Of a stretch of DNA of 64,000 nucleotides, positions 7,279-63,432 are shown piece after piece. Made by a program: the position numbers and the translations under genes. This stretch comes from Clostridia bacterium (GTDB lineage: Bacteria; Bacillota; Clostridia; Oscillospirales; CAG-272): NCBI GenBank assembly GCA_017517035.1, contig JAFXAN010000083.1, positions 27,853 through 91,852 of the forward strand, in the 5' to 3' direction. The stretch's first letter is position 1. Every line of letters begins with the position of its first letter. Under the pieces are notes generated by a model, which had not been told where the DNA came from, ran no database searches, and saw only the letters and a list, made by a program, of their open reading frames with translations.

Positions 7279-7308
7279 ATATTAACCGTTGATTTCTCAA
7301 CGGGAAAT

Positions 7309-9898: not shown

Positions 9899-9914
9899 TT
9901 TTACCTCCAAAATC

Positions 9915-10035: not shown

Positions 10036-10071
10036 ATGCCGTAAGCAACTGTGTTGCTCACAACGCTGACT

Positions 10072-10946: not shown

Positions 10947-11848
10947 TGATCTTAATTGAAAACATTTCAAAAAGCTACGGAGATATAAAATCTCTGACAG
11001 GTATAAATGCCGCGATCGGAAGCGGAAGCATTTACGGTCTTATCGGCTCAAACGGAAGCGGAAAATCAACCCTTCTTCGCATAATGAGCGGAATAATGCG
11101 TCCGGATAGCGGCAAGGTGGGCTATGACGGTAAGCTTGTTTATGAAAACCCGGAGGTAAAGGACACTGTTGTTTATCTTTCGGATGAACAGTATTTTCTA
11201 TCAAATTCAACTCCGGATGAAATGGCAAGACTTTATGGTTCTCTCTATTCAAGCTTTTCCTTTGAAAGATATAACGAGCTATTGAAGCTTTTTGGTCTTG
11301 ACGGAGGCAGAAAAATCTCAACATTTTCAAAGGGTATGAAAAAGCAAACTGCGATACTGCTCGGACTATCTTGCAATCCTAAATATCTGCTTTGCGATGA
11401 GACTTTTGACGGACTTGATCCCGTTATGCGTTTGCTTGTAAAGAGAATACTTGCCGAGGAAGTGGCAACAAAAGGGCTTACACCTGTCATAGCTTCACAT
11501 AATCTTCGTGAGATCGAGGATATTTGCGATCATATAGGACTTCTTCATGAAGGCGGCATTCTGTTTGAAAGCGAAATTGATACGCTTAAATCAGAAATTC
11601 ACACGGTTCAGGGTGTATTTGGTGAGGACAAGAGAGCAGGGGACATCTTTGGCGATTTCCATGTTGTGTCCGAGAACAAGAGAGGAGCACTCATGACGGT
11701 TGTTGTGAGGGGCGAAAGAGATAAGATAGAAGACGCTGCAAAGGCTGCTGAACCGAAATATTTCGAAATCATCCCTCTCACCCTTGAGGAAATTTTTATC
11801 AGCGAAATGGAGGAAAGAGGCTATGACTACTCAAAAGTTGTATTCTGA
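10946..11848 (+). CDS. ABC transporter ATP-binding protein
   Basis: Walker A GSNGSGKST, signature FSKGMKKQ, Walker B LLCDETFDGLD. The start overlaps the gntR stop (TGATG). Confidence 0.9.
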   Translation: MILIENISKSYGDIKSLTGINAAIGSGSIYGLIGSNGSGKSTLLRIMSGIMRPDSGKVGYDGKLVYENPEVKDTVVYLSDEQYFLSNSTPDEMARLYGSLYSSFSFERYNELLKLFGLDGGRKISTFSKGMKKQTAILLGLSCNPKYLLCDETFDGLDPVMRLLVKRILAEEVATKGLTPVIASHNLREIEDICDHIGLLHEGGILFESEIDTLKSEIHTVQGVFGEDKRAGDIFGDFHVVSENKRGALMTVVVRGERDKIEDAAKAAEPKYFEIIPLTLEEIFISEMEERGYDYSKVVF

Positions 11849-23370: not shown

Positions 23371-24831
23371 ATGAGTTTAACAAAAAAGGAACTGATCGAG
23401 AAAAATAAGTATGAAATTGAGTTCTCGATCGACAAAAAGACCTTCGACGATGCTGTTATGAAGGTTTATCGCAAGAGCGTTAAGAATATCAACGTTCCCG
23501 GCTTCCGTAAAGGTAAGGCACCCAAGTCCGTTATCGAGAAGATGTACGGCACAGGTGTTTTCTATGAGGATGCTATCAATGATCTCCTTCCCGAGGCTTA
23601 TGATGCAGCGGCTAAGGAATCCGAGCTTGAGATCGTTGGAAATCCCGAGTTCGATATCGTTTCCATTGATGAAGGCGGTCTCGTTATGAAGGCTGTTGTT
23701 TATGTAAAGCCCGATGTTGAGATCAAGGATTATTTCGGAATTGAAGTTTCAAAGACAGTTATCCCCGTTACAGACGAGGAGGTTGATCGTGAGATCAAAA
23801 CTGTTCAGGAAAGAAACGCAAGAGAGACTGAGGTTACAGACCGTGCTGCTGAAATGGGCGATACAACTGTCATCGACTTTGACGGTTATGTTGACGATAA
23901 ACAGTTTGACGGCGGTAAGGCTGAGGGGCACAAGCTCAAGCTTGGCTCGGGTCAGTTTATTCCCGGCTTTGAGGAACAGATCGTTGGTAAGAATGTTGGC
24001 GACAGCTTCGATGTAAATGTTAAGTTCCCTGCTGATTATCATGCTTCTGAACTTGCAGATAAGGATGCTGTTTTCAAGTGCGTTCTTCATAAGATCGAAA
24101 AAGAGGAGCTTCCCGAGCTTGACGATGAATTTGCAAAGGATGTTTCCGAATTTGATACATTTGCTGAATATAAGGCTGATGTCAAGGCAAAAATCGAAGA
24201 GAGACATGCAAGAACTGCTGATGCAGAGATCGAAGAGCAGATCATCGCAGCTCTTATCGCAAAGCTTGAGGCTGATATTCCCGAGTGTATGTTCGTAGCA
24301 GAAACAGAAAACTTTGTTCGTGATTACGATTCCAGACTCAGAATGCAGGGCCTTGATCTTAACACATACTTCAAGTATACAGGTCTTACACTTGATGCTC
24401 TCCGTGAGCAGATGCGTCCCCAGGCTGAAAAGCAGGTTAAGACACGCCTCGCTCTTGAGAAGATCGCAGAGCTTGAGGGTATCGTAGCTTCCGATGCTGA
24501 TATAAACGAAGAATATGAAAGCATCGCAAAGGCTTATAATGTTCCTGTGGAAGAGGCTAAGAACAGCATTCCTGAGGATATGATCGCAGCTGATATGAAG
24601 GTTAAGAAGGCTGTTGAGCTTGTTAAGGAAAAGGCTGTTGTAACCGAAAAGGCTCCCGAGGAGCCCAAGCCTGCAAAGAAACCTGCAGCAAAGAAGACAA
24701 CAACAAAGAAGACAACTGCAAAGGCTGATGATGCAAAAGCTGAAGAAAAGCCTGCAGAAGAGGCAGAAAAGCCCAAGAGAACAAGAAAGCCCGCAGCAAA
24801 GAAGGCAGAAGAGCCCAAGGCTGAGGAATAA
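23371..24831 (+). CDS. tig: Trigger factor with a 59-aa Lys/Ala/Glu/Pro-rich C-terminal tail
   Basis: The N-terminus has GFRKGKAP (ribosome-binding loop), followed by an FKBP domain and a C-terminal arm. The tail APEEPKPAKKPAAKKTTTKK...KAEEPKAEE is extra. Confidence 0.9.
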   Translation: MSLTKKELIEKNKYEIEFSIDKKTFDDAVMKVYRKSVKNINVPGFRKGKAPKSVIEKMYGTGVFYEDAINDLLPEAYDAAAKESELEIVGNPEFDIVSIDEGGLVMKAVVYVKPDVEIKDYFGIEVSKTVIPVTDEEVDREIKTVQERNARETEVTDRAAEMGDTTVIDFDGYVDDKQFDGGKAEGHKLKLGSGQFIPGFEEQIVGKNVGDSFDVNVKFPADYHASELADKDAVFKCVLHKIEKEELPELDDEFAKDVSEFDTFAEYKADVKAKIEERHARTADAEIEEQIIAALIAKLEADIPECMFVAETENFVRDYDSRLRMQGLDLNTYFKYTGLTLDALREQMRPQAEKQVKTRLALEKIAELEGIVASDADINEEYESIAKAYNVPVEEAKNSIPEDMIAADMKVKKAVELVKEKAVVTEKAPEEPKPAKKPAAKKTTTKKTTAKADDAKAEEKPAEEAEKPKRTRKPAAKKAEEPKAEE

Positions 24832-24851
24832 TATAATTAAACTTTGAGAAT

Positions 24852-24874
24852 TGCCGCTTCCGAGCGGCAGTTTT
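24852..24874 (+). terminator. Hairpin plus short U-run after tig
   Basis: TGCCGCT-TCCG-AGCGGCA followed by GTTTTC. Confidence 0.5.
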
Positions 24875-24909
24875 CATCAGAAATACTTTTTATTTTGGAG
24901 GATAATATT

Positions 24910-25494
24910 ATGGCACTTGTACCAACAGTAATTGAACAGACCAACCGCGGTGAGAGAGCTTATGATATCTATTCAAGGCTTCTTAATGACAGAATCGTTT
25001 TTCTTGCAGACGAGGTAAATGACACAACCGCTTCCCTTGTGGTTGCACAGCTTCTTTTCCTCGAAGCTCAGGATCCCGATAAGGATATCTCCCTTTATAT
25101 AAACAGTCCCGGCGGATCTGTTTCCGCAGGTCTTGCTATCTATGATACAATGAACTTTATCAAATGTGATGTTTCAACCATCTGCATTGGTATGGCGGCA
25201 AGCATGGGTGCATTCCTTCTCTCTTCCGGTGCAAAGGGTAAGAGATTTGCTCTTCCCAACAGCGAAATTATGATCCATCAGCCTCTCGGAGGAACAAGAG
25301 GTCAGGCAACAGATATCAAAATTCATGCAGATCATATTTTGCGCACACGCGACAGACTCAACAAGATCCTCGCTGATAATACCGGCAAAGCTCTTGAGAT
25401 CATCGAGAGAGATACAGAGAGAGATAATTTTATGACAGCAGATCAGGCGCTCGAATACGGTCTTATTGATAAAGTGTTCACAAAGCGTGCCTAA
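24910..25494 (+). CDS. clpP: ATP-dependent Clp protease proteolytic subunit
   Basis: [29 protein letters not shown] (Ser), IMIHQPLGG (His). ATG 24910 after GGAGG; the ORF-track 5' extension is rejected. Confidence 0.95.
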
Positions 25495-25516: not shown

Positions 25517-26788
25517 ATGGCAACTAAAAACAATCAACCTACAAGATATTGCTCCTTTTGCGGAAGGGGCGAAACACAGGTTAATTTTCTTATTCCTTCC
25601 CCCGATGGAGTTTATATCTGCGATTACTGTGTTGATGCTTGCCAGGAGCTGATAAGCACGAATTCCGGACCCGCTGTTGATTTTGACAGCCTTGCTCCGG
25701 GAGCCCTTCCCCGCCCCAGAGAGATAAAAGAATCACTTGATAAATATGTTATCGGTCAGGATGAGGCAAAGAAAGCACTTTCAGTTGCGGTTTATAACCA
25801 CTATAAGCGCATAATGAACCGTGAGGAGAATTTTAAAAAATCCAAAGGTGAAGAAAACGAAGATATTATTGAGCTTCAGAAAAGCAATGTTCTTCTTATA
25901 GGCCCCACCGGTGTCGGAAAGACCTATCTTGCGCAGACCCTCGCAAAAACTCTCAAGGTGCCTTTTGCCATTGCAGATGCAACAACACTCACAGAGGCAG
26001 GTTATGTTGGTGAGGATGTTGAAAACATCCTCCTCAGGCTCATTCAGGCGGCTGATTTCGATATTGAGCTTGCCGAAAGAGGCATAATTTATATTGATGA
26101 AATTGATAAGATATCAAGAAAAAGCGAAAATCGCTCCATAACAAGAGATGTTTCCGGAGAGGGCGTTCAGCAAGCGCTTCTCAAGATTCTCGAGGGTACG
26201 GTTGCAAATGTTCCGCCTCAAGGTGGAAGAAAGCATCCGAATCAGGATTTTATTCAGATAAATACTGAGAATATCCTCTTCATATGCGGTGGCGCATTTG
26301 ATGGTCTTTCGCAGATCATCGAAAAGCGCAAGGGCAATCAGTCCATCGGCTTCTCGGGCGAGATACTCAAAAAGGCCGAAAAGAAGGAAAACGGTATTTA
26401 TAAGGATGTGAATCCTCACGACATCGTGAAATACGGCCTTATTCCCGAGCTTGTGGGAAGAATTCCTGTTATAGTTCCGCTTTCAGATCTTGATAAGGAC
26501 GCTCTTGTTAGAATTATCAGTGAACCGAAAAATTCACTTGTAAAGCAATATATCAAGCTCTTTGATATGGATGGTGTCAAGCTTGAATTTGAGGACGAAG
26601 CACTTGAAGCGGTTGCAGCAAAGGCTCTTGAAAGAAATACAGGCGCAAGAGGCCTTCGTTCGATTATGGAAGAGATCATGGTCGATCTTATGTATGATAT
26701 TCCCTCGGAAGAGAATTTAAAGAAAGTTATTATTACAGCCAATTGCGTAAACAATAAGGAAAAACCGAGAAAGGTTTATAAAAAGTAA
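25517..26788 (+). CDS. clpX: ATP-dependent Clp protease ATP-binding subunit ClpX
   Basis: Zinc ribbon CSFCGR...CDYCVDAC, Walker [18 protein letters not shown]. Confidence 0.95.
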
Positions 26789-28291: not shown

Positions 28292-31200
28292 TTACTGAAA
28301 ACTATAATTTAAGTACGGTTTTTCTTCAATGTATTTGTCGATCAGCTTCTGTATTCCGGTCATGTCATCCTCTGAAGCAAACACATCGGCATAGTTGGTT
28401 GTCGCACCGTTATATGTATAATATGTGGAGATAAATTCATCAAATGTGCGATATTGATAATCCGAGCTATAGGAATCGTCTCCGCAGAAATAATACGGCT
28501 GTCCGACAGCACTTTCGCCTGTGATGATGCTATATGTCATAAGGGTTGTGATATAACCTGTAAGCTGGTTGGGATGATATCCGTCATTTGCGCTCTGGTT
28601 TACAACAAATGTGTTTTTGTTATATTCAAGTGTCGCTCCGGGGACTTCAACATCACCGTTCACAATGTCTGCAATTATCTTGCCCCAATCTATGACAGTT
28701 ACGCCCTTTTCACCAAGCGTTTTTAAGCTCTCAAGGAATACTGTATCGGGGCCTGTTGCTCTGTTGTCAATTCCATGAGCCGATGACTGTGCCATAAGAT
28801 AGAATTTTACATTTGGATTTGCTTCTTTAAAGAAGTCTATCATAACATCCAGCCATTCGATATAGTTTGTCTGACCTCTTGTGCCATAACAAGCAACAAC
28901 ATAGTCATAATACGGATCGGTAAGGTATGATGCGTGGTCGACTCCATCGCAACCTCTGTTTGCGGAACAGCTTCCGGAGAAGAAATCGTCAAGCAGATGA
29001 TTTCCTATAGTCCAGTTTGTAACATTCACATCCATTCCGTTCGCCTTGCAAAGCTGGTAGAAATAACCTTCGTCGTTCATTCTTCCCTCTTGCGTGAGTG
29101 TGTCTGTTGCATATTTGCAAAGAACCGTGTTACCATAGAAAATATGCGAATTTCCAATGAAAATTATTCTCTTTCCGTCCAGCGGAACAGAATTTATTAT
29201 ATCCTTCACAATACTATCCTTATCCATTTCATCGGTAACTATTCCGTTTTTCCACATTTCATAGCTGATATCATATAGACTTACCTCATCATAATCTGTT
29301 CCTGCGCAATCGGTATATGTGATATTTATATTACCGTCTGAATCCTGCCAAACTTCGTATGCACAGAAATAAACATCAGACTGATAATTCTTTTCGTCGA
29401 AATTAACGACCGTCACAGCAAACTCTGTCTTGTTTTCTGAATCGGAAAGATATTTACCGACAAAGCCGTCATCATTATTCCAAACTTCTGTTTTAATTGC
29501 GCCGACAGCGGTATACCCACCGTTTCCATCCGAGATAAGAACGCAATTTGACTTGTTTTCGGCAGAAGCAACAATCGTTCCGTATTCAAGCAATGTAAAG
29601 CCTTTTGCTTCATTTTCATTGACGATTCCCCGGCTTACCGAAAACAGTCCGCGCAGACCGTTATAATCCGCTATGCGAACGCTAAAGCCGTCCATTGTTA
29701 CTGCATTATAAAATTTTCCGGGATAAACTACATCGGTAAATTCAAAATCACCAAAAAGATCTGCGATCTCGCTGTTGCTGACATTTATCACAAGTCCTTC
29801 AATATCGGGGAACGCATTTTCGGCAACAGATGTTAACGAAGCAGATGCTGCTGTTACACTGCGAAGTGAAGTGCATCCCGCAAAGGCCTTTGACTGAATA
29901 GAAGTTATGTATGTTGGCAAGGTTATGTCAACAAGTGAGGTGCATCCTTCAAACATTGAAGCAAAGATATAGGGAGTTGCGGTCTTATCTGCGCTGTCCG
30001 AAATTGATGATGTTCTGAAAATTACTTTTTTAATGGATGAACATCCTCTGAACATATAATCGGGTTCCTGAACTGTCCAATATTGCAAGCCCTTAAGGTT
30101 GATTTCGCCTTCCTTAAAGTTTGATCCCCAACCAAGTGTTGTGAGAGAGGGATTTCCTTCAAACACACCACCGGAAACTGCGTCTTGTATTTGGTTATAA
30201 GCACTATCTATTTTTATCGAAAGAAGATTTGGCATATTGGCAAAGAAAAATTCATCGTCGCTATTTTGACAATAGATCATTCCGCCGCTTGCGCTTGTAA
30301 CGGTTTCAATGTGAATAATAGCATCCCGCCATATCTGCTTCCATTCATAGATGGTGCTTCTGCTGTCAAGGCAAAGATTTGCACTCCATCCGCTTGTAAC
30401 AGAGCTTGTGATCGTAAGCTTCCCTGTTTCTTCATCAAATGTCCATGTATAAGCTTTACCAAAGGTATTGCTACCGTCTCTCACAAGTGACGGATCGTAT
30501 TCCTTTGAATAGTATTCAAGCTTAATATTTGCGTCAGTATTCTTTATAAGCAAGCGAACACTTGTTGCAGCATCACAGGTAGGATAAGAAACAAAGGTTA
30601 TTTGATCACAATCGGGGATAAGAATACCTGAAACGGAAATACTCTTTGAAAGCATTATTCTCGGTGAAGCTTCACCGAAAGAACCGTAGAAAGCACTTGA
30701 GCTGATTGAAGTGGCATTTGAAAGATCCACTTCTTCAAGCTTTGGATTATTTGCAAAGATATATTCGGAGCTTATCGCTGTAAAGGACTCAGGAAGAACT
30801 ATCGACTTAACATTTGGAAGATTCGCAAAAGCATAATCATCTGCCGATGTTATAGAAGCTTCTACCGAAATTGCAGAAATATCATTTGCAAATTCCATCC
30901 AGGGCATTTCGCCGTCATATGTGAGTGCTCCCGAGCCTTCGCCCGTGATTTTCAGAGTTCCTTCGCCATCAATTGTCCAGCTATATTCGCCAACGGTGCC
31001 GCTTTCGCTTACAAGTGCGATTATTTTTGTTTGCTCATAAGCAAAAGTGCTCTTGATTGCGTTTGCATCTTCACGGGTCTGTGTGTAAACAACGAGATTT
31101 GCTCTGTCATCAAAAACTTGACCTGAAGTTGAAAATCCGGTTGCGTTGATCGTAACCTCATTGAGAGCGGAACAGCCGCTAAAGGCTCCTGTACCCAATG

Positions 31201-32482
31201 TTACAACATTGCTCGGAATGATAATACTCTCAAGTGATGTGCATCCCGAAAAAGCATTTGCTCGTATCTCTGTTGTATAGGTGGGGATTGTTATTTCCTT
31301 AAGTGATATACAGTTGTTAAACATAGAAGCGTATATGTAGGTATATGTATTAGAACCGCTTATCAATCCTGCACTCGTTAGAATAACCTTCTTAATAGAG
31401 CTGCAACCGTCAAACATATTATCAAGATTACCGCCTGTAAGGTTCTTAAGACCTTTAAGGCTCACAACATTTTCGGTGAGCGTACTATTGAAAGAAACTG
31501 TTGTCAGAGAAGGACAACCACTGAAGAAACCTCCTGAAGCCTGCTCCTTTATTTCGGTGATACCATTCATATGAACGCTTACAAGGTTAGGGAGATTGGC
31601 AAACATACATTCTCCGGCATTACTGCTGTTATAAAATGCACAATAGGAGAAATTTGAAAATTCAACGCTGATAATTGCGTCTCTCCATATTTCTTTCCAC
31701 GCCTTAAGGCTTGCAGTGGAGCTGAATGTAATAGATGTCCATGATGTTGAAGTGCGGGTGATAGTCAGCTTACCTGTTGCTGTGTCAATGTTCCAACTGT
31801 ATTTACTTTCAGCACCTGCTCTCACCAAAGATGAGTCATATTCTTCCGAAAAATAGTCAAGAGTGATATTTGCTTTTTCTGTTTTTATAAGTGAACGAAC
31901 ACTTGTTGCAGCAGTACATGTCGGATATGTAACAAAAGTAATGTTTCCGCAGCCTTCGGAAAGATCCAAAGCCGAAACAGAAAGATCCTTTGCCAAATAA
32001 ATTATTGGTAAAACACCGTCGAATGAGCCTGCAAACGCACTTGCGCTCAAAGCTTTTGCGCCTGTAAGGTCAATAACGCCGCTGTTTGTGCTTTCGCTGA
32101 TCTTAATCTGGGTAAGATTGGAATTGTTAGCGAAAAGAAAATCCGAATTGAAATCCGTAAATGTCGCCGGGAGCGTTACGGAGGTCAAATTGGGTAAATT
32201 TGAAAATGCATAAGGTGATGCCGAGACTATTTCGGCATCGACAATGATTTCGGAAATAGAATCTGCATTTTCGAGCCACGGTATCATAGTCAGGTCATCT
32301 GATGTGGGAATGCTCGAAAAATCAAGGATGCCGTCTCCTTCGCCGCTTATCGTTAAAATGCCATTTTCATCTATCGAATAATAATAATCATTTCCTACTG
32401 CATCCTCAGCATAGGCAGAGAAAACGAGTGCAGATGCGATGATTAAAGCAATGGCAAAAACTGACATTATGTGTTTTTTCAT
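28292..32482 (-). CDS. Secreted BspA-type LRR protein with internally duplicated module and C-terminal SGNH/DUF4886-like esterase domain
   Basis: Signal peptide MKKHIMSVFAIALIIASALVFSAYA/ED. LRR units include AFSGCTSLESIIIP and AFAGCTSLRSVTA. The C-terminal part has RIIFIGNSHIFYG (block I-like) and SANDGYHPN (block V D-x-x-H-like). Confidence 0.8.
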   Translation of the reverse strand: MKKHIMSVFAIALIIASALVFSAYAEDAVGNDYYYSIDENGILTISGEGDGILDFSSIPTSDDLTMIPWLENADSISEIIVDAEIVSASPYAFSNLPNLTSVTLPATFTDFNSDFLFANNSNLTQIKISESTNSGVIDLTGAKALSASAFAGSFDGVLPIIYLAKDLSVSALDLSEGCGNITFVTYPTCTAATSVRSLIKTEKANITLDYFSEEYDSSLVRAGAESKYSWNIDTATGKLTITRTSTSWTSITFSSTASLKAWKEIWRDAIISVEFSNFSYCAFYNSSNAGECMFANLPNLVSVHMNGITEIKEQASGGFFSGCPSLTTVSFNSTLTENVVSLKGLKNLTGGNLDNMFDGCSSIKKVILTSAGLISGSNTYTYIYASMFNNCISLKEITIPTYTTEIRANAFSGCTSLESIIIPSNVVTLGTGAFSGCSALNEVTINATGFSTSGQVFDDRANLVVYTQTREDANAIKSTFAYEQTKIIALVSESGTVGEYSWTIDGEGTLKITGEGSGALTYDGEMPWMEFANDISAISVEASITSADDYAFANLPNVKSIVLPESFTAISSEYIFANNPKLEEVDLSNATSISSSAFYGSFGEASPRIMLSKSISVSGILIPDCDQITFVSYPTCDAATSVRLLIKNTDANIKLEYYSKEYDPSLVRDGSNTFGKAYTWTFDEETGKLTITSSVTSGWSANLCLDSRSTIYEWKQIWRDAIIHIETVTSASGGMIYCQNSDDEFFFANMPNLLSIKIDSAYNQIQDAVSGGVFEGNPSLTTLGWGSNFKEGEINLKGLQYWTVQEPDYMFRGCSSIKKVIFRTSSISDSADKTATPYIFASMFEGCTSLVDITLPTYITSIQSKAFAGCTSLRSVTAASASLTSVAENAFPDIEGLVINVSNSEIADLFGDFEFTDVVYPGKFYNAVTMDGFSVRIADYNGLRGLFSVSRGIVNENEAKGFTLLEYGTIVASAENKSNCVLISDGNGGYTAVGAIKTEVWNNDDGFVGKYLSDSENKTEFAVTVVNFDEKNYQSDVYFCAYEVWQDSDGNINITYTDCAGTDYDEVSLYDISYEMWKNGIVTDEMDKDSIVKDIINSVPLDGKRIIFIGNSHIFYGNTVLCKYATDTLTQEGRMNDEGYFYQLCKANGMDVNVTNWTIGNHLLDDFFSGSCSANRGCDGVDHASYLTDPYYDYVVACYGTRGQTNYIEWLDVMIDFFKEANPNVKFYLMAQSSAHGIDNRATGPDTVFLESLKTLGEKGVTVIDWGKIIADIVNGDVEVPGATLEYNKNTFVVNQSANDGYHPNQLTGYITTLMTYSIITGESAVGQPYYFCGDDSYSSDYQYRTFDEFISTYYTYNGATTNYADVFASEDDMTGIQKLIDKYIEEKPYLNYSFQ

Positions 32483-54201: not shown

Positions 54202-55077
54202 CTGCGTTTTGCATATATAAGCATTTGCGCCTGCCGATATGAGTGATTTTTTTGCGTTTTCTGCTTGTTTTTCTTCGGTAAAAATCCCGAAAACAGACGG
54301 TCCGCTTCCGCTCATCATCGAAATAACAGCACCCGAATTTAACATACAGCTTTTGATCTGCCCAACGAAAGGCCGTTCTTTTTCAACAACACTTTCAAAA
54401 ATGTTGTATGTACCGGAGTAAATCTGCGTATTATTGCTCTCTTTAAGACCAACTAAAAGCTTTTCTATTCTTCCCTCATCCCTGCTTGATGAAAAATCTC
54501 CGTAAGTTTCGTCAACAGCTTTATATGCTATGGGTGTGGATACCCCGTCTCCCTTTATGGCGATCACAATGTGCATATTCGGACAGTCATCGAGGCGTGT
54601 CAATTTTTCTCCTCTTCCCTCGCAAAGAACCGTTCCGCCAACATAGCAAAAAGGCACATCAGATCCGACGGAAGTGGCAATTTCAAGCATCATAGGCTCA
54701 TCCAAAGGCTTTTTGTTGAGCTTATTCAGAATCCTGAGAGTTGCAGCAGCATCCGAGCTGCCACCCGCAAGACCCGCTGATGAAGGTATCATTTTATTAA
54801 GATTTATATGGATCCCAAAACTTTTATTTATTGCTTTTCGATATGCATCCGTAGCTTTAATGATCAAATTTGATGAATCGGTCGGAATACCCGGAACATT
54901 GCAGATCAAACTGTTGTCGGTCTGCTCGGAAAGTCGGATCTCAAGCTCGTCACAAAGTGAAACACTTTGCATTATGCTTTTTATATCGTGAAATCCGTCG
55001 TCACGCTTTTTAGTTACATCAAGATAAAGGTTAATTTTGGCATATGCCTTGTCCGATATGGCTCTGTTAAAGATCAT
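54187..55077 (-). CDS. ispE: 4-diphosphocytidyl-2-C-methyl-D-erythritol kinase
   Basis: AYAKINLYLDVTKKRDDGFHDI, and PSSAGLAGGSSDAAA (GHMP ATP loop). Confidence 0.9.
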   Translation of the reverse strand: MIFNRAISDKAYAKINLYLDVTKKRDDGFHDIKSIMQSVSLCDELEIRLSEQTDNSLICNVPGIPTDSSNLIIKATDAYRKAINKSFGIHINLNKMIPSSAGLAGGSSDAAATLRILNKLNKKPLDEPMMLEIATSVGSDVPFCYVGGTVLCEGRGEKLTRLDDCPNMHIVIAIKGDGVSTPIAYKAVDETYGDFSSSRDEGRIEKLLVGLKESNNTQIYSGTYNIFESVVEKERPFVGQIKSCMLNSGAVISMMSGSGPSVFGIFTEEKQAENAKKSLISAGANAYICKTQKRTP

Positions 55078-55152
55078 AATATCACCACCCGGTTAAATGA
55101 TATCACAAATATTCTTCCCTGTCAATTATTTTCTTAATTTCACCTTAAATTC

Positions 55153-55181
55153 TTGACTTTTTGGCATAATTAAAGTATAAT
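55153..55181 (+). promoter_or_regulatory. Consensus-like sigma-A promoter of the perM-htpG operon
   Basis: TTGACT (55153-55158), 17 nt, TATAAT (55176-55181). The 18-nt core CTTGACTTTTTGGCATAA is identical to 23295-23312. Confidence 0.7.
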
Positions 55182-55211
55182 ATAATAAATACCCAAAAAG
55201 GGGGAGCACAG

Positions 55212-56513
55212 ATGAATAACGAAAATAATAAAAAGCATGATAAAAATAATTACTTGAAGCTGCTTTGCATTCTTGCGGTGGTTTTTGTTGCCCTGTTTGC
55301 ACTTGTTAATTTTGGAACCTTTGCAATGATTTTTGCAATTATCATTTCTGTTTTAGAACCGGTTCTGATCGGATTTATTATTGCTTATCTTTGCAATCCT
55401 ATTTATAGGATGTTCAGCACTAAGGCCCTTAAAAAGATCAAACGAGCAAAGCTGAAGAAAGTTCTTTCGATCGTTTTGACTTACCTTGTTGTACTTGCTA
55501 TCGTTGCCGGAATATTGCTTATAATTATTCCGCAGTTTGTCTTTGCATTCAAGGATCTCGTTGCAAAGACTGATGGCTATATCAATGCTGCAATTGCATG
55601 GGCGAATAATCTTATCAGCAATTCTAATCTTTTTGCCGAGAATACCGATATTTTTGATTTTATTGACACTGAAAAGATTCTTGCAAATCTCAAAACTTTC
55701 TTTGATGCATCCGGTGACATACTTAAGAAGGTCGGCGACCTTGCGATAAATTACGGAACGAATATTGTCGGCGGAATCACAAATGTTCTTCTCGGATTGT
55801 TCATCTCCATTTATGTTCTTATTTTCAAAGAAAAAATGGCAGTTTGGTTCAAGAGGATCTTTCGTGCTATGCTTTCGAGAGAAAAATATGATTCGTTCAT
55901 CAATAGAATCGATCATGTAAACAGCAAGTTTGGTAACTATATTATCGGTGCTCTTACGGATTCTATCATTGTTGCGGTTGAAGGCTTCATAATCTTTTCT
56001 CTCTTTGGAATCCCATATGCACCGCTTGTGGCTGTTATCGTGGGTATAACAAATATTATACCGATTCTCGGTCCTTTTCTCGGTGCGGTCCCCAGTGCTT
56101 TTATCATTTTCATTGTTAATCCCGAAAAGGTTATTCTTTTCATAATTCTCATAATTGTGATCCAGCAGATAGACGGAAACATTGTTGCTCCGTTCATTCT
56201 CGGCTCAAGCCTTGGCCTTAGCTCTTTCGGCATTATCATCGCAGTAACCGTAATGGGCAGTCTTTGGGGCATACCGGGAATGTTTATCGGTGTTCCTCTT
56301 TTTGCATATGTTGCAGATGTCATTGAGGAGGTCGTTAATAACAAGCTGAAATCTATCGGTGATCCCGAATTTCCGCCGCACGAAATTCAAAATGATGTCA
56401 AAGCGCCTTCTCCGATCATCAGCTTTATAAAAAGAAAAGGCGGAAATCTTATAAAAAATGTAAGAAATAAAACCGGTAAAAGAACCAAGATAAGAACCGG
56501 TAAGAAAAAATAA
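55212..56513 (+). CDS. AI-2E family transporter (PerM/YhhT-like)
   Basis: 433 aa, 8 TM. GITNIIPILGPFLGAVP and QQIDGNIVAPFILG motifs. Basic C-terminal tail. Confidence 0.8.
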   Translation: MNNENNKKHDKNNYLKLLCILAVVFVALFALVNFGTFAMIFAIIISVLEPVLIGFIIAYLCNPIYRMFSTKALKKIKRAKLKKVLSIVLTYLVVLAIVAGILLIIIPQFVFAFKDLVAKTDGYINAAIAWANNLISNSNLFAENTDIFDFIDTEKILANLKTFFDASGDILKKVGDLAINYGTNIVGGITNVLLGLFISIYVLIFKEKMAVWFKRIFRAMLSREKYDSFINRIDHVNSKFGNYIIGALTDSIIVAVEGFIIFSLFGIPYAPLVAVIVGITNIIPILGPFLGAVPSAFIIFIVNPEKVILFIILIIVIQQIDGNIVAPFILGSSLGLSSFGIIIAVTVMGSLWGIPGMFIGVPLFAYVADVIEEVVNNKLKSIGDPEFPPHEIQNDVKAPSPIISFIKRKGGNLIKNVRNKTGKRTKIRTGKKK

Positions 56514-56524
56514 GAGGTCTCAAA

Positions 56525-58366
56525 ATGTCTGAAATTCAAAACAAAAAAGGCGGTATATCTGTTGAATCACAGCATATATTCCCTATCATCAAAAAATGGC
56601 TTTATTCCGAAAAGGATATTTTTCTCCGTGAAATCGTTTCAAATGCAACCGATGCTATAACAAAGCTTAAAAGATTGCAGTCCCTTGGACAGATCTCTTC
56701 ATTTGAGAATGACTTCAAAATCACGGTTTCGCTCGACAAGGAGGCGAAAACCCTTTCGGTAAGCGATAACGGAATCGGCATGACCGAAGACGAGCTTCAG
56801 AGATATATTTGCCAGATTGCTCTTTCGGGTGCTCTTGAATTTATTGAGAAATACGAGGATGAAAGCACTTCCGCTCAAAACGGAATAATCGGTCACTTTG
56901 GCCTTGGATTTTACTCATCATTTATGGTGAGTGATACCGTTGAGCTTATCACAAAATCCTATACCGATGCTCCCGCCGTCAGATGGGTTTGTAACGGTGA
57001 CGGTGAATATGAGATATTTCCTGCCGAAAGAGACGAAAAAGGCACAACTGTTATCATGCACATCTCTGAGAGCGAAACAGAGTATCTTGACAGCAACAAG
57101 ATCCGCTCTATGCTTGATAAATACTGTGCATTTATGCCTGTTCAGATCTATTTTGATGACAGTGAACAGTCAGAAGACAAGGAAAATAAACCGATCAACG
57201 ATGTTGAACCGCTTTGGCTGAAGAACCCCTCGGATTGCAAGCCTGAGGAATATAATGAATTCTATAAAAAGGTCTTCGGAGATTTCAGAGATCCTTTGTT
57301 TTATGTTCATATCAATGCAGATTACCCTCTCAATTTCAAGGGTATTCTCTTCTTCCCCAAGCTAAACAATGAATTTGAATCTGTAGAGGGGCAGATAAAG
57401 CTTTATTATAATCAGGTGTTCGTTGCGGACAATATCAAGGAAATAATTCCCGAATATCTTCTTATGCTTAAGGGCGTTCTTGATTGTCCCGAGCTTCCAC
57501 TTAATGTTTCAAGAAGCTATCTCCAGAACAACACATATACCGCAAAGGTTGCGGCTCATATAGTCAAAAAGGTTGCGGACAAGCTCGCCGGACTTTGCAT
57601 CAACGAGCGTGAAGAATATGAGAAGGTATGGAACGATATTCGAACATTTGTTGAATATGCCTGCATGAGAGATAAAAAATTCTATGACCGTGTCTCTTCT
57701 TCCCTGCTTCTCCACCTTACAGACGGCAGCTATGTCACAAGAGATGCTTATCTTGAGTCCGCAAAGGAAGTTCATGAAAACACTGTTTATTATGCAACCG
57801 ATGCAGATCTTCAAGCTCGATATATTTCACTTTTTGAATCTCAAGGGATCAAGGTCGCACTCTTTGAAAAGCTTATTGACACGCAATTTATTTCAATGCT
57901 CGAAAGCTATGAGCCGAATGTAAAATTTGTCAGAGTTGATGCGGATGTTGCAGGAGTTCTAAAGGGAGACGGAAAGATCGAGAGTAACGAAAAGATCGTG
58001 GAACTATTCAAAAAAGTTAGCGGAAAGGACGAACTTGAAGTTGTTTTTGAAAGCTTAAAGGATGAAAATGTTCCTGCAATTATGAATGTTTCAGAGCAGT
58101 CGAGAAGAATGGAAGAGATGATGAAGCTTTATTCCATGTCTTCGGGTGGAAATGCGCCATCCTTCCCTCTCGAAATGAAGATGATAATAAACACATCTTC
58201 AGCGCTTATCGACCATCTTTCGTCTGTTTGCGAAACAGATATCGATAAGGCAGAAAAAATCGCAAAGCAGATCTTTTATCTTTCACTTATGTCACAAAGA
58301 AATCTAACAGCAGAGGAAATGAAAAATTTCCTTGATGACAGCTATGGAATTTTGAAAAATTACTGA
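56525..58366 (+). CDS. htpG: Molecular chaperone HtpG (Hsp90)
   Basis: IFLRELVSNATDAITKL, DNGIGMT, GHFGLGFYSSFMV, LNVSRSYLQ. Confidence 0.95.
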   Translation: MSEIQNKKGGISVESQHIFPIIKKWLYSEKDIFLREIVSNATDAITKLKRLQSLGQISSFENDFKITVSLDKEAKTLSVSDNGIGMTEDELQRYICQIALSGALEFIEKYEDESTSAQNGIIGHFGLGFYSSFMVSDTVELITKSYTDAPAVRWVCNGDGEYEIFPAERDEKGTTVIMHISESETEYLDSNKIRSMLDKYCAFMPVQIYFDDSEQSEDKENKPINDVEPLWLKNPSDCKPEEYNEFYKKVFGDFRDPLFYVHINADYPLNFKGILFFPKLNNEFESVEGQIKLYYNQVFVADNIKEIIPEYLLMLKGVLDCPELPLNVSRSYLQNNTYTAKVAAHIVKKVADKLAGLCINEREEYEKVWNDIRTFVEYACMRDKKFYDRVSSSLLLHLTDGSYVTRDAYLESAKEVHENTVYYATDADLQARYISLFESQGIKVALFEKLIDTQFISMLESYEPNVKFVRVDADVAGVLKGDGKIESNEKIVELFKKVSGKDELEVVFESLKDENVPAIMNVSEQSRRMEEMMKLYSMSSGGNAPSFPLEMKMIINTSSALIDHLSSVCETDIDKAEKIAKQIFYLSLMSQRNLTAEEMKNFLDDSYGILKNY

Positions 58367-59208
58367 TGAATAAAGAAACAGATACAATAATTAAGAACAT
58401 TAAGAGTATAAAAAGCGAATCGGAGCTGCGTCTCAAAGCACTTAAGCTTTGGCTGAGAGAGCTTGTTTCAGCTGCTCATAGGGATGGCTTTTCAACCTAT
58501 GAGGATTTTGCGGAGCTACTCAAAAGTGCAGATATAAACACTCCGGAAGAGATGCTCATCGCTGCCAGAATGCTTCGCTATGAAGACCTGGGCGAGCTGC
58601 ATGGAGATTTTACCATGCAGCCAATTGATAAGCCGCATTATGTGGTTTCAAATTTTTGCAATTCGCTTTCGGAAGAAACTTATGAGCATTTCTTTGGCGA
58701 CAAAGAATACAAAATCATCAAAAGGAACAGCTTTGGAGAGCTATTTGACGATGTTTATAATGAGACGGCAAACTATTGCATTGTCCCCATCGAAAATAAC
58801 ACATACGGTACACTCGGAAACTTCTATATTCAAATATTTGATTATGGTCTGAAGATTGTTAAGGTCTGCGACATTTTGCATCCTGACGGAGATGATGAAA
58901 CAAGATTCGCGCTTCTCTCCTCTGCTCCGATCAGCCTAGCTTCTCTTGAAGACGGCGAGGATCATTTTGAGCTTGTTATCCATTCAAGTGACGGATCCAT
59001 CATTCCGAGAATACTCGAAGCAGCAATGCTTTGCAAAATGATTCCTGAGCGAATCGACTCCGTGCCTCTTTCAAGGCTTAAAAAGGATCATCCGTTCAAA
59101 ATAGTTTTCAAGATGCTCCCTGATGTCAATCTTCCTGATTTTCTGATCTATCTCATTCTTGACGGGATTTCTTATACCCCTGTGGGTATTTTCAATATTT
59201 GTGAATAA
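58366..59208 (+). CDS. Degenerate prephenate-dehydratase/ACT-like protein of unknown function, start-stop coupled to htpG
   Basis: The ATG overlaps the htpG TGA (TGATG, 58364-58368). NYCIVPIENNTYGTLGNF (compare PDT VVPIENSxxGxV), DDETRFALL (PDT TRF motif), ERIDSVPL (compare ACT IESRP). The central PDT subdomain and the GPxGT(F/Y)S N-terminus are missing. Confidence 0.55.
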   Translation: MNKETDTIIKNIKSIKSESELRLKALKLWLRELVSAAHRDGFSTYEDFAELLKSADINTPEEMLIAARMLRYEDLGELHGDFTMQPIDKPHYVVSNFCNSLSEETYEHFFGDKEYKIIKRNSFGELFDDVYNETANYCIVPIENNTYGTLGNFYIQIFDYGLKIVKVCDILHPDGDDETRFALLSSAPISLASLEDGEDHFELVIHSSDGSIIPRILEAAMLCKMIPERIDSVPLSRLKKDHPFKIVFKMLPDVNLPDFLIYLILDGISYTPVGIFNICE

Positions 59209-59246
59209 AGTTATAAAAAATGAAATAAAATTTGAAAGGACAAAAA

Positions 59247-59513
59247 ATGAAAAAACATATCACTTACACAACAAACGGTGTTTGTTCAAGACAGATCGAT
59301 CTTGATATCGAAAATGATATTATTGTTGGAGCAAAATATACCGGCGGATGCTCCGGAAACACGCAAGGAGTTGCAGCTCTTGTTATAGGAATGGAAATAA
59401 ATGAGGCAATTTCTCGTCTTTCCGGAATCAAATGCGGAATGAAGAACACCTCCTGTCCCGATCAGCTCGCAAAGGCTCTTGAACAGTATAAAAGCGAAAA
59501 GGAGAATTTATGA
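59247..59513 (+). CDS. TSCPD-domain protein (TIGR03905-like)
   Basis: GVCSRQIDLDIEND...GGCSGNTQGVAALV...NTSCPDQLAKAL. ATG 59247 after AAAGGA. Confidence 0.75.
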   Translation: MKKHITYTTNGVCSRQIDLDIENDIIVGAKYTGGCSGNTQGVAALVIGMEINEAISRLSGIKCGMKNTSCPDQLAKALEQYKSEKENL

Positions 59514-61234
59514 ATTACACTTATAGGGAGAATTTTGAAAAATGGCTCCAGAGCGGCAAGCTTTCGGAAGATGAAATGAGCGCTCTTATCGCAATAAAAG
59601 ATGATGAGAAGGAGATAAAAAGCAGATTTTCATCATTTCTTTCTTTCGGAACAGCAGGCCTCAGGGGAACCATGAAGGTTGGTATGAACGCAATGAATCG
59701 CCATACCGTTGCCCATGCAACACAAGGACTTGCAGCTCTTATCATCAAAGAAGAAAGAGAAAATGACGGTGTTGTGATTGCATATGACAGCCGTAACAAC
59801 TCCGAGCTTTTTGCAAAAATATCCGCTCAGGTTCTTGCCGCAAACGGAATAAAAGCTTATCTTTTCGACGGCATAAGGCCAACGCCCGAGCTTTCCTTTG
59901 CTATAAGAAACCTTGGCTGTGTTGCAGGTATCAATATTACCGCTTCTCACAATCCTAAAGAGTATAATGGTTATAAGGCTTATTGGGAGGATGGTGCTCA
60001 GCTTCCCCCGGAGCACGCCGACACCGTTTCAGCACAGATAGAAAAGGTCGATATTTTCAAAGATGTTAAACTTCAGGATTTTGATTCGGCAATAAAGGAC
60101 GGCAAGATCATCATTATTGGTGATGAGATCGACGAAAAATATCTTGCAGAGGTCGAAAAACAGCTCGTAAATCCGGATGCAATTAAAAAGGTTGCTGATG
60201 AACTCAACATCGTATATACCCCTCTCCACGGTACAGGCTATAAAATGGTTCCCGAGATCTTGAAAAGAGTCGGCATTAAGAACCTATATACCGTTCCCGA
60301 ACAGATGATAATTGACGGGGACTTTCCAACGGTGAAAAAGCCAAATCCGGAATTTTCCGAGGTCTTTTCTCTTGGCATAAAAATTGCTGAAGAGATTCAC
60401 AGCGATCTTGTTATCGCAACAGATCCCGATGCTGACCGAGTTGGTGTTGTCACAAGAACCACCGACGGTGATTTTATGACGATCACAGGAAATCAGATGG
60501 GTGCGTTGCTTATCGACTATATCCTTTCGGCTTACGAGGAAACCGGCACCATGCCCGAGGAACCTTATGTTGTGAAAAGTATTGTTTCGACAGAGCTTGC
60601 CGCAAAGATTTGCGAGGAACATGGAGTAAAAATGTATAATGTCCTCACAGGCTTTAAATTTATCGGTGAAGTCATTAAAAATCATGAAAAAGAAGGACAC
60701 GGCTCTTTCCTCTTTGGCTTTGAAGAAAGCTATGGATACCTCAAGGGCACATATGCAAGAGATAAGGATGCTGTTGTTGCCTCTATGCTTATTGCTGAAA
60801 TGACAGCATACTATAAGGCGAAAAATATGACGCTCTTTGATGCTCTCGATTCTCTTTACAAGAGATACGGATTCTCAGCCGAGAATAATCTTGAGGTTCA
60901 TATGGAAGGCGTTGACGGCCCGGAAAAAATGGAGGCTCTCATGTCTTCCCTCAGAAACAGCACACCTACCGAGATCGGCGGAGTTTCTGTTGGTATTTTC
61001 GGTGACTATATGACCGAAAGCTTTACTGATATGAAGAGCGGAAAAACAACGCCGACCGGTCTTCCCAAAGCTAATGTTCTGTATTTTACCCTTGAAAACG
61101 GTGATGTTATTATCGTTCGTCCTTCGGGCACAGAGCCAAAGGTTAAATTCTATTTCCTTGTTTCGGGTAAAGATAAGAACGAGACATCAAACAAAATTGA
61201 GATTTATCAAAAATCAATCAAAAAACTCATTTAA
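59510..61234 (+). CDS. Phosphoglucomutase / phosphomannomutase family (alpha-D-phosphohexomutase)
   Basis: FGTAGLRG, and ITASHNPKEYNGYK (phosphoserine loop). 574 aa. ATGA overlap with the upstream gene. Confidence 0.9.
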   Translation: MNYTYRENFEKWLQSGKLSEDEMSALIAIKDDEKEIKSRFSSFLSFGTAGLRGTMKVGMNAMNRHTVAHATQGLAALIIKEERENDGVVIAYDSRNNSELFAKISAQVLAANGIKAYLFDGIRPTPELSFAIRNLGCVAGINITASHNPKEYNGYKAYWEDGAQLPPEHADTVSAQIEKVDIFKDVKLQDFDSAIKDGKIIIIGDEIDEKYLAEVEKQLVNPDAIKKVADELNIVYTPLHGTGYKMVPEILKRVGIKNLYTVPEQMIIDGDFPTVKKPNPEFSEVFSLGIKIAEEIHSDLVIATDPDADRVGVVTRTTDGDFMTITGNQMGALLIDYILSAYEETGTMPEEPYVVKSIVSTELAAKICEEHGVKMYNVLTGFKFIGEVIKNHEKEGHGSFLFGFEESYGYLKGTYARDKDAVVASMLIAEMTAYYKAKNMTLFDALDSLYKRYGFSAENNLEVHMEGVDGPEKMEALMSSLRNSTPTEIGGVSVGIFGDYMTESFTDMKSGKTTPTGLPKANVLYFTLENGDVIIVRPSGTEPKVKFYFLVSGKDKNETSNKIEIYQKSIKKLI

Positions 61235-61237
61235 AAG

Positions 61238-61274
61238 AGTCCCGATGCGAGACGATCGCATCGGGGCTTTTTTC
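61238..61274 (+). terminator. Intrinsic terminator after the phosphoglucomutase gene
   Basis: AGTCCCGATGCGA-GACGA-TCGCATCGGGGCT followed by TTTTTTC. Confidence 0.85.
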
Positions 61275-61277
61275 TTT

Positions 61278-61296
61278 ATAATTCAACATCAATTAT
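61278..61296 (+). promoter_or_regulatory. AT-rich palindrome upstream of feoAB (Fur-box-like candidate)
   Basis: ATAATT-CAACATC-AATTAT. AATTATCA resembles a Fur half-site and overlaps the probable -35 region of a TATACT -10 box at about 61317. Confidence 0.3.
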
Positions 61297-61355
61297 CAAA
61301 AAACGAGCTTTTGGAATATACTTTTGGTAAAGTTTCTTTGAGAGGAGACATATTC

Positions 61356-61604
61356 ATGGCTTCGTTTGAAAATCTGTCAAGGCTTAGGCCTGACAGCAAA
61401 GCTGTAATTTTAGAAAACAACGCCTCGGAATTTATAAAAACGAGGCTAAATGATATCGGACTTATTGAAGGCACGGAGGTTGAATGCGTCGGCAGAAGCC
61501 CTACGGGTGGAATTTCAGCCTTCCTTATAAGGGGTGCTACCATTGCGATACGGGATGAGGATAGTTGCAAAATTGTCATTCGAGAGGTGATTCAAAATGC
61601 CTAG
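61356..61604 (+). CDS. feoA: Ferrous iron transport protein A
   Basis: 82 aa. RLNDIGLIEGTEVECVGRSPTGG...IRGATIAIR (FeoA SH3-like). GAGAGGAG RBS. The ORF-track 5' extension (61074) overlaps the pgm gene and is rejected. Confidence 0.85.
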   Translation: MASFENLSRLRPDSKAVILENNASEFIKTRLNDIGLIEGTEVECVGRSPTGGISAFLIRGATIAIRDEDSCKIVIREVIQNA

Positions 61605-63432
61605 CGCTGAAAAAAAGACTATAAATGTGGCTCTTGCGGGAAATCCCAATGTCGGAAAAAGCACAGTCTTTAACAATTTAACCGGGATGAAGCAACATAC
61701 CGGCAATTGGCCCGGAAAAACTGTAGCAACAGCAAAAGGTTTTTCGGAAAGTGAAAAATATATCTATTCTGTCGTTGATCTTCCCGGAACATATTCCCTT
61801 TCTTCTCATTCCCCCGAGGAAGAGATCGCAAGTGAATATCTCACTTCGGGGTGTTGTGATGCGGTGGTTATTGTTTGCGATGCTGCTTGTCTTGAACGAA
61901 ATTTGATCTTGGCATTTCAGATAATGAATCTGGGGATTAGAGCAATTTTGTGCGTAAATCTTCTTGATGAGGCCAAAAGAAAAGGCATAAATGTTGATTT
62001 AGACTTACTGTCGAAAAAGCTCGGTGTTCCTGTGGTCGGCACTGTTGGCAGAAAAAAGAAAAGCGCTCAAAAGATCCTTGATGCACTTGATGATTTATCT
62101 TATGGAGAATCTTTATCTGCAGAGAATTTGCATTTTTCCGAAAACAATATTGAAGAAATAATTGCAAAATCAGAAGAAGCGGTCAAAGAAGCGGTAACGA
62201 AAAAGCACGAAAATACATTCGGTTTCGATAGAAAACTCGACAGAATATTGACAGGCAAGCTCACAGCATATCCAATCATGATCCTTTTGCTTGCGGCAGT
62301 ATTCTGGATAACTCTTGAAGGCGCAAATTATCCTTCAAGATTATTGGCTGTTGTTTTGGACAATTTAGGGGAAGGCATTAGAAGTTTTCTTGAATTTGTT
62401 CGGATTCCGAATATCATAATAAGTGTTTTTATTGACGGAATCTATAGGGTTCTTTCTTCGGTTGTTTCCGTTATGCTTCCCCCAATGGCAATATTCTTCC
62501 CTTTTTTCACTCTTCTTGAGGATTCGGGATATTTGCCGAGAATAGCATATAATCTTGACCGACCTTTTAAATGCTCGGGGGCTTGCGGAAAACAAGCGCT
62601 TACTATGTGTATGGGATTCGGATGCAATGCAGCAGGCGTGGTCGGTTGCAGGATCATTGATTCTCCAAGAGAAAGGCTTCTTGCAGTGCTAACGAACAGC
62701 TTGGTTCCCTGCAACGGAAAATTTCCCACTCTGATTGCTCTGATTTCAATGTTTTTTGTTCTTGATGGGAATTTCTCTGCAATGCTTTCTTCTCTGATTC
62801 TCACTTTGGTCATTCTTTTGGGAATAGCTATGACCTTTGCGGCAACACGAATTTTATCGTTCACTTGTCTTAAAGGCAGACCTTCTTCCTTCATTCTTGA
62901 GCTTCCGTCATACAGAAAACCTCAAATTGGAAAGGTGATCGTTCGCTCTTTGCTTGACAGAACCGCATCGGTACTCATGCGCGCAATAGCCTTTTCCGCA
63001 CCGTGCGGTTTGGTTATCTGGATGCTTGCAAATATAAGCATCGGAGATACATCGCTTCTATCCTCCTGCACGATTTTTTTCGATCCGATCGGCAAGGCAT
63101 TAGGGCTTGACGGCGTTATAATTTTTGCATTCATTCTGGGGCTTCCTGCCAATGAGATCGTTATACCAATTATACTAATGTCTTATCTGTCATCGGGTAC
63201 ACTTGTTGATATCTCGGACCTTGATTCGATGAAAAATATTCTTGTGTCAAACGGATGGACCTTGAAAACTGCGATTTCCATGACGATCTTTACTTTGTTT
63301 CATTGGCCTTGCGCTACTACGCTGATAACGGTAAAAAAAGAAACGGGTAAGCTATATTACACGCTTCTTTCCGCAATGATACCCACTTTGATTGGCGTTA
63401 TTTTATGTCTTATGGTAAATATATTATTTTAA
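61597..63432 (+). CDS. feoB: Ferrous iron transport protein B
   Basis: G-domain ALAGNPNVGKSTVFN, DLPGTYSL, followed by a polytopic membrane domain. Overlaps feoA by 8 nt. Confidence 0.92.
   Translation: MPSAEKKTINVALAGNPNVGKSTVFNNLTGMKQHTGNWPGKTVATAKGFSESEKYIYSVVDLPGTYSLSSHSPEEEIASEYLTSGCCDAVVIVCDAACLERNLILAFQIMNLGIRAILCVNLLDEAKRKGINVDLDLLSKKLGVPVVGTVGRKKKSAQKILDALDDLSYGESLSAENLHFSENNIEEIIAKSEEAVKEAVTKKHENTFGFDRKLDRILTGKLTAYPIMILLLAAVFWITLEGANYPSRLLAVVLDNLGEGIRSFLEFVRIPNIIISVFIDGIYRVLSSVVSVMLPPMAIFFPFFTLLEDSGYLPRIAYNLDRPFKCSGACGKQALTMCMGFGCNAAGVVGCRIIDSPRERLLAVLTNSLVPCNGKFPTLIALISMFFVLDGNFSAMLSSLILTLVILLGIAMTFAATRILSFTCLKGRPSSFILELPSYRKPQIGKVIVRSLLDRTASVLMRAIAFSAPCGLVIWMLANISIGDTSLLSSCTIFFDPIGKALGLDGVIIFAFILGLPANEIVIPIILMSYLSSGTLVDISDLDSMKNILVSNGWTLKTAISMTIFTLFHWPCATTLITVKKETGKLYYTLLSAMIPTLIGVILCLMVNILF

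Follow-up and report, generated by a model that had tools for sequence, protein, structure and literature searches.

Gene X at the htpG locus

We analyzed a 64,000-nucleotide (nt) stretch of DNA from a Clostridia bacterium (assembly GCA_017517035.1, contig JAFXAN010000083.1, positions 27,853 to 91,852; hereafter, the window), in which htpG, encoding the bacterial Hsp90 chaperone, is followed by an open reading frame (ORF) of 280 amino acids (aa). The product of this ORF, whose start overlaps the htpG stop, is named X here. It is a truncated relative of prephenate dehydratase (PDT), and its description as a functional, noncatalytic descendant of that enzyme, i.e., a degenerate PDT and not an enzyme, is well supported by the data presented below. 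Gene X lies within a block of plus-strand genes bounded by promoter-like and terminator-like elements, with the following features:

55153..55181, plus strand: promoter-like site TTGACT-17-TATAAT, with 11/12 consensus matches, the top-scoring site of this strand within 54900-61700
55212..56513, plus strand: AI-2E family transporter gene, first of the block; homologous genes are annotated PF01594 in loci L001-L003, and it lies upstream of htpG in most related loci
56525..58366, plus strand: htpG (bacterial Hsp90), 613 aa; NF003555, Pfam HSP90 and HATPase_c; own AGAGG Shine-Dalgarno (SD) sequence
58364..58368, plus strand: overlap TGATG of the htpG stop and the X start, with 1 base common to both codons and no SD-like sequence at -22 to -4
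58366..59208 (stop codon included), plus strand: X, 280-aa truncated PDT-like protein, supported by the ORF, homologs, profile, and model
59247..59513, plus strand: gene for a small four-Cys TSCPD-domain protein (TIGR03905, 114 bits; Pfam PF12637, 4.6e-27)
59510..61234, plus strand: phosphoglucomutase/phosphomannomutase (PGM) family gene with Pfam PGM_PMM I-IV, downstream of X in most related loci
61233..61273, plus strand: intrinsic terminator-like hairpin closing the block, with an 18-bp stem, 8 GC pairs, and then a T run

A previous interpretation made without database searches (the sequence-only reading) had placed the X ATG (58366-58368) over the htpG TGA (58364-58366), and the two codons indeed have one base in common. 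This ATG is the earliest start codon of its frame, with only 9 open codons before it, and we judge it to be real because residues 1-30 are conserved in the close-homolog alignment. The three PDT/ACT signature motifs that had been announced for the ORF were all located, i.e., IVPIENNTYGTLGNF at aa 139-153, DDETRFALL at aa 176-184, and ERIDSVPL at aa 228-235. A word-indexed search recovered 10 close homologs at 46-99% identity, with 75 invariant columns in their alignment. Comparison with the homolog in L001 yielded a ratio of nonsynonymous to synonymous substitution rates (dN/dS) of ~0.085, an approximate value with dS near saturation, and X is under purifying selection. At the protein level, it evolves ~3-4 times faster than HtpG (47-72% versus 84-89% identity in the same genome pairs). 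X is a real, conserved gene, with an intact ORF retained in more than 40 loci, down to ~20-25% identity.

HtpG reaches 594 bits against NCBIfam NF003555 (cutoff, 371), with residues 8-607 of 613 covered, which identifies it as full length. The gap between the AI-2E gene and htpG is 12 nt. For the TSCPD gene, the listed ORF begins with TTG at 59232, and the ATG at 59247 is preceded by AAAGGA. The PGM gene overlaps the TSCPD gene by 4 nt and has its own strong AGGAG SD inside the latter. X is the sole gene of the block devoid of an SD-like sequence, whereas the htpG and PGM genes carry their own. Gene overlaps of 1 or 4 nt are found at 7 or more junctions in the window; therefore, the htpG-X overlap is by itself of little weight. 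The scan of the window for a CIRCE heat-shock operator upstream of the operon found none within 3 mismatches.

Domain anatomy and fold of X

The AlphaFold2 (AF2) model of X, built from ten homologs (pLDDT 81; pTM 0.82), comprises four helices within aa 3-72 (aa 3-16, 22-39, 45-54, and 60-72), a five-stranded alpha/beta lobe at aa ~92-185, and an ACT-type domain at aa ~200-276. The corresponding elements on the plus strand are as follows:

58366..58629, aa 1-88: N-terminal four-helix domain, an orphan fold (AF2 helices; no PDB fold match)
58630..58926, aa 89-187: single PDT first-lobe domain (Pfam PDT, Foldseek, and P-protein alignment)
58786-58797: PIEN motif, within the PDT first lobe
58900-58908: TRF motif, within the PDT first lobe
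58957..59199, aa 198-278: ACT-like beta-alpha-beta-beta-alpha-beta domain (AF2 secondary structure; alignable with the ACT portions of 4lub and L117)

PDT is the sole Pfam family match of X, at aa 101-166, which correspond to profile positions 10-74 of 181; with 31.4 bits against a gathering score of 25.2, this domain fragment passes. In contrast, the NCBIfam PDT equivalogs (PRK11898/PRK11899 family level) scored 17.4, 15.6, and 14.4 bits versus cutoffs of 219, 359, and 577, so that all failed by more than 200 bits. The TRF motif starts only 13 residues past the end of the Pfam match; hence, X lacks ~81-90 aa of the PDT domain. In the canonical Clostridial P-protein L117, residues 196-276 (~81 aa) have no counterpart in X, and P-proteins align on both flanks of this segment. 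As judged by its position in the PDT profile, the missing ~81-aa stretch is the second lobe of the PDT catalytic domain. At the position of the Gly-rich loop GPxGT(F/Y)S, X reads VSNFCNSLSE and the canonical L111 reads IAYQGVEGSYGHGAA. The absence of both the GPxGT motif and the middle PDT subdomain, advanced in the sequence-only reading, is thus confirmed at the level of profile and alignment.

Foldseek comparison of the X model with PDB returned PDTs (4lub, 2qmw, 2qmx, 6vh5, 3mwb, and 3luy) or the PDT-fold protein GqqA in all significant matches (16/16), with the best at E values of 5e-11 to 8e-6. A sequence search of PDB with X alone gave chance-level matches only (e.g., Cas9 at E 0.046), and a profile search with X homologs recovered PDTs weakly. 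The Pfam ACT model did not match X. The profile and fold matches uphold the degenerate PDT/ACT-like identity proposed at the outset, and no full-length alignment of X to active PDTs emerged.

The N-terminal domain is a lineage-specific orphan fold, in keeping with the unrelated helical region noted from the sequence. It has no Pfam match, and Foldseek comparison of the isolated domain with PDB gave no fold match, the best hit having E = 2.6, with chorismate mutases absent from the hits. We also asked whether it could be a degenerate chorismate mutase, in which case X would amount to a cut-down P-protein. This candidate is unsupported. Pfam CM_2 at E<=10 matched 0/34 X-family members, with the P-protein controls L111 and L117 matching at ~1e-21 to 1e-22, and hhalign to chorismate mutase domains gave a probability of 8% with only helix 1 aligned, a weak test given a template of just two sequences.

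Relationship of X to known proteins

Monofunctional PheA (PF00800 plus ACT; 2QMX, 2QMW, 4LUB, 6VH5, and 3MWB) contributes the best fold matches of X as well as its sole Pfam family. X likewise has the first-lobe alpha/beta fold, the PIENSxxG loop, TRF, and an ACT-type fold, but it lacks the second lobe (~81 aa), the GPxGT(F/Y)S loop, and the GALV/ESRP motifs of PheA, and it carries an extra ~90-aa helical N-terminal domain. The three-part layout with a ~100-aa helical N terminus is instead that of the bifunctional P-protein (chorismate mutase-PDT-ACT), represented by E. coli PheA and by the Clostridial L111 and L117, both canonical CM_2-PDT-ACT proteins that were recovered in passing. L111 provides the closest sequence context, reading ADYCILPIENSS where the X family has CEYCILPIENS, and this suggests that X descends from a Clostridial pheA. 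However, the P-protein N terminus is a CM_2 domain, whereas the X N-terminal domain is not detectably one, and the genes of L111 and L117, unlike X, do not adjoin htpG.

GqqA (7ALZ/7AM0) ranks among the top fold matches of X and sets a precedent for the PDT fold in non-PDT use, since this protein is reportedly a quorum-quenching acylase. Its chains of 273-278 residues align with X over 277-279 columns, as full-length PDT chains do, so that GqqA looks full length, unlike X; it has no known link to chaperones. A functional analogy is offered by IlvH/IlvN of acetohydroxyacid synthase, i.e., small ACT proteins encoded right after their catalytic partner, often with an overlapping start, that confer ligand control. 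Their relationship to X in sequence does not go beyond the ACT-like fold, and the partner of X would be a chaperone, not an enzyme.

The X family

An exhaustive profile search identified 662 representatives of 50% identity clusters at E<1e-3, 296 of them at E<1e-10. The breadth of the family was measured by this search; a word-indexed search with a 34-sequence X-family alignment gave mainly one subfamily. That alignment has no conserved stretch of 7-10 columns, and the metagenome scan described below was seeded from an 8-sequence alignment. Nearly all representatives are 280-350 aa long. They have the same truncation as X, because the matched stretches are equally long in query and target among the 150 representatives listed. 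The sources are all metagenome-assembled Clostridia, Eubacteriales, or Oscillospiraceae/Ruminococcaceae from gut and rumen, and where they give a name, it is "hypothetical protein" or "prephenate dehydratase domain-containing protein." In the literature, we found no description of the X family, of an htpG-linked PDT-like gene, or of a relevant PDT pseudoenzyme. The X family is large, lineage restricted, nameless, and uncharacterized. One member, P0094 (682 aa), carries a ~350-aa low-complexity insertion (SYDR-, GGN-, and SN-rich repeats) within and after its N-terminal domain.

Residue conservation was tabulated for 205 distinct family members:

P141: 100%
E143: 91%
N144: 73% (S in 18%)
G148: 97%
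T179: 87%; V, I, S, A, or N in 13%
R180: 68% (K in 15%); neither R nor K in 18%
F/Y181: 98%
ESRP equivalent: D (75%)-S/T (84%)-L/V/I-P; Arg in 11/205
GALV equivalent: unconserved; G in 35/205
Gly-rich loop: replaced by I-A-Y-x-K/R-N-x-Y-x-D-x-A-Y/F, with no conserved Gly

Mean column identity across the family is 26%, and PIEN, G148, and TRF, which line the active site, are the most conserved positions; in the close clade of X, T179-R180-F181 is invariant or nearly so. The family consensus at the former Gly-rich loop is IAY(L/Q)(K/R)NSYTDxAY, and the N-terminal domain varies both in length (~90-190 aa) and in sequence. In PDTs, TRF is critical for catalysis, and GALV and ESRP are regulatory motifs (PMC13217925). 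By these motifs, X has not kept the classical ACT-domain Phe site. The concentration of the strongest conservation on the ligand-site residues of the surviving lobe, together with the new polar motif, points to a binding site that would have been retained or repurposed.

Conservation of the htpG-X junction across genomes

A scan seeded with HtpG, with one genome per species, charted 30 loci (L006-L035) whose HtpG is 41-87% identical to that of the window. X lies directly 3' of htpG in 19 of the 28 assessable loci, L030 and L032 having too little downstream sequence. The X proteins found after htpG are often only 22-33% identical to that of the window and were missed by the word-indexed search. 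The metagenome scan, seeded with X-family members and not with HtpG, yielded 25 family loci, 6 of them too short to assess; htpG is immediately upstream in 15 of the 19 with at least 340 nt of upstream sequence. Adjacency to htpG is thus widespread, and not absent from related genomes. Among 25 junctions (the window plus genome-derived loci), the X start and the htpG stop overlap in 21 (TGATG, TAATG, or ATGA; 20 by 1 nt and 1 by 4 nt), and the remaining 4 have gaps of 3-10 nt. No SD-like sequence precedes the X start in 21/22 lineages. This conservation of the overlap exceeds chance. In L103-L107, the htpG-X gap extends to 94 nt, and X has its own GGGAGGG. On a rough neighbor-joining tree (186 columns of the conserved core, no bootstrap), htpG-linked X proteins occupy all major branches, including the deepest, and the loci lacking htpG are isolated tips.

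Some junctions have particular arrangements. In L098 and L101, htpG lies upstream of X with a gap of ~160-400 nt, the X start not being pinned, and near-identical X genes in L099 and L100 have no htpG; this indicates a recent rearrangement at the htpG-X junction between close strains. L100 has a minus-strand 787-aa ORF upstream of X. At L109:1555-3553, an X homolog with a partial match to the family model has upstream of it an htpG distributed over three frames; this htpG is a frameshifted pseudogene or else reflects an assembly error.

Other features of the window

Some 30 kb upstream of the htpG operon is a proteostasis cluster in which trigger factor (23371-24831) and ClpX (25517-26788), both on the plus strand, flank a 216-aa ORF (24844-25494), perhaps ClpP by its position. 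Two very large ORFs, at 21-6197 (plus strand, 2058 aa) and 28292-32482 (minus strand, 1396 aa), encode BspA-type leucine-rich repeats (Pfam LRR_5). A 737-aa ORF at 11784-13997 (plus strand) has no Pfam match at E<=1e-5. Two minus-strand tRNA-Leu genes, at 7192-7278 and 9951-10035 (anticodons CAG and GAG), fall inside the listed ORFs 6236-7300 and 9146-10048, whose starts are probably overextended.

Function of X

X is very unlikely to be a PDT, as it has lost the substrate loop along with half of the catalytic cleft, and 13% of the family members have another residue in place of the catalytic Thr. This comparative evidence, together with the failure of the NCBIfam equivalogs, bears out the earlier doubt about an active enzyme. 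As its most likely role, we tentatively favor that of an HtpG accessory protein made by termination-reinitiation, a proposal prompted by gene order and translational coupling. X would be cotranscribed with htpG. Given the overlap of its ATG with the htpG stop and the lack of an SD, it would probably be made by ribosomes that end on htpG and reinitiate at the overlapping ATG. The amount of X would thereby be tied to HtpG synthesis. The ACT-like domain would confer dimerization, and the retained half-site (PIEN and TRF) along with the family motif Y-x-K/R-N-x-Y-x-D would form the binding site for a client segment or a small molecule. X would thereby modulate or target the chaperone, in physical or functional contact with it. 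We know of no dedicated co-chaperone established for bacterial HtpG, whose clients are poorly defined.

A number of observations weigh against a functional link between X and HtpG. X does not follow htpG in 9 of the HtpG-seeded loci, including L008, L012, and L025; HtpG of L008 and L025 is closer to that of the window than most X-bearing ones are, yet has no X downstream. Conversely, L091, L095, L099, and L100 lack htpG upstream of X within at least 340 nt. In L012, the PGM gene comes directly after htpG, and htpG-PGM adjacency is at least as persistent as that of htpG and X; in L031, a GlmM-like mutase gene takes this place, so that htpG-mutase adjacency may be older than X. The persistent unit is a mixed operon, htpG-X-(TSCPD)-PGM, which the AI-2E gene often precedes, and position inside this operon could account for the persistence of the htpG-X pair without any functional link. 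HtpG C-terminal tails are alike in X-bearing and X-lacking relatives, with no covariation visible. Eukaryotic Hsp90 co-chaperones (Aha1, p23, Hop, and Cdc37) are like X only in the hypothesized role, and neither Pfam nor the Foldseek results revealed similarity of X to known Hsp90 co-chaperones in sequence or fold. Furthermore, an X subfamily of 362-384 aa precedes ruvC-ruvA-ruvB in 5/5 proteins looked up, with no htpG within 5-10 kb of these five genes. In 4 of the 5, the X stop overlaps the ruvC start by 4 nt, and the subfamily is monophyletic and nested on the rough tree. In these ruvC-linked loci (L118-L125; e.g., L124:10001-13353), the subfamily gene is preceded by a small 80-108-aa ORF without a Pfam match; ruvC, ruvA, and ruvB are themselves absent from the 64-kb window. 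With gene order and coupling on one side and the ruvC clade, the loci lacking one partner, the lack of covariation in the HtpG tails, and the mixed operon on the other, the role of HtpG partner, adaptor, or modulator put forward in the sequence-only reading is not established. Its ligand-sensing variant is likewise unproven, given that the classical Phe-binding ACT motifs are not conserved.

The same observations lend themselves to another explanation, in which X is a stand-alone regulatory or ligand-binding pseudoenzyme unrelated to HtpG, e.g., a sensor of an aromatic-pathway metabolite or a regulator of PGM or another target. Its origin would be a Clostridial pheA that had inserted between htpG and PGM and was cut short, and X would stay there since operon breakage is costly. 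The direct succession of htpG and a mutase gene in L012 (PGM) and L031 (GlmM-like), the persistence of X-PGM adjacency without htpG in L091 and L099/L100, and the ruvC-linked clade, which shows that X works away from htpG, all speak for it, and the standing of PIEN, G148, and TRF as the most conserved positions of a family with 26% identity fits a retained ligand site. Against it speaks the lack of an own SD in 21/22 lineages, which ties X synthesis to htpG translation, whereas the unrelated PGM gene of the same operon keeps a strong SD; furthermore, the htpG-X arrangement spans the whole family tree, and the Phe-binding GALV/ESRP motifs are not conserved. We rank this explanation second and, taken jointly with the origin it supposes, regard it as possible but on the doubtful side.

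A catalytic role of some kind is improbable. X could be a minimal prephenate/arogenate or related dehydratase or decarboxylase, with either the helical N-terminal domain or the same lobe contributed by a second subunit standing in for the lost one. E143/N144, which presumably correspond to E159/N160 of the E. coli P-protein, and T179-R180-F181 are kept in the X of the window, PIEN and TRF are highly conserved family-wide, and no canonical PDT is encoded in the window, where the family hidden Markov model and two P-protein queries match nothing else, although 64 kb are a small part of the genome. Against these points stand the absence of the whole second lobe and of the Gly-rich substrate loop, the replacement of T179 by V, I, S, A, or N in 13% of members and of R180 by residues other than R or K in 18%, PDT equivalog scores of 14-17 bits versus cutoffs of 219-577, and an N-terminal domain whose variable length (~90-190 aa) and sequence are unlike those of a catalytic lobe. 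As a truncated, divergent copy of a known enzyme that evolves ~3-4 times faster than HtpG, X might also be taken for a decaying, functionless pheA remnant or an annotation artifact. The intact ORF in more than 40 loci, the conserved core motifs, the dN/dS of ~0.085, and the confident AF2 fold run counter to decay, and on these conservation data this view is effectively refuted. The probability that the accessory, stand-alone, and minimal-enzyme readings do not take up is left for roles not listed here.

Whichever its role, X is a new architectural variant of the known PDT fold family. The X family represents an enzyme fold cut in half, with one periplasmic-binding-protein-like lobe and the ACT domain kept under selection, and it adds to the pseudoenzymes derived from amino acid biosynthesis. 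If the link to HtpG were inherited gene order only, X proteins would make up an uncharacterized, lineage-restricted family of modest interest. In a bolder and rather unlikely extension of the accessory role that we favor, they would be the first dedicated bacterial Hsp90 accessory proteins, i.e., PDT-derived pseudoenzymes made in fixed proportion to HtpG by termination-reinitiation that respond to a metabolite through the half-site and the ACT-like dimer and so gate or target the chaperone. X proteins, the synthesis of which would be tied to that of HtpG across dozens of species, offer a concrete, testable candidate partner, and interest would be high should an interaction with HtpG be shown.

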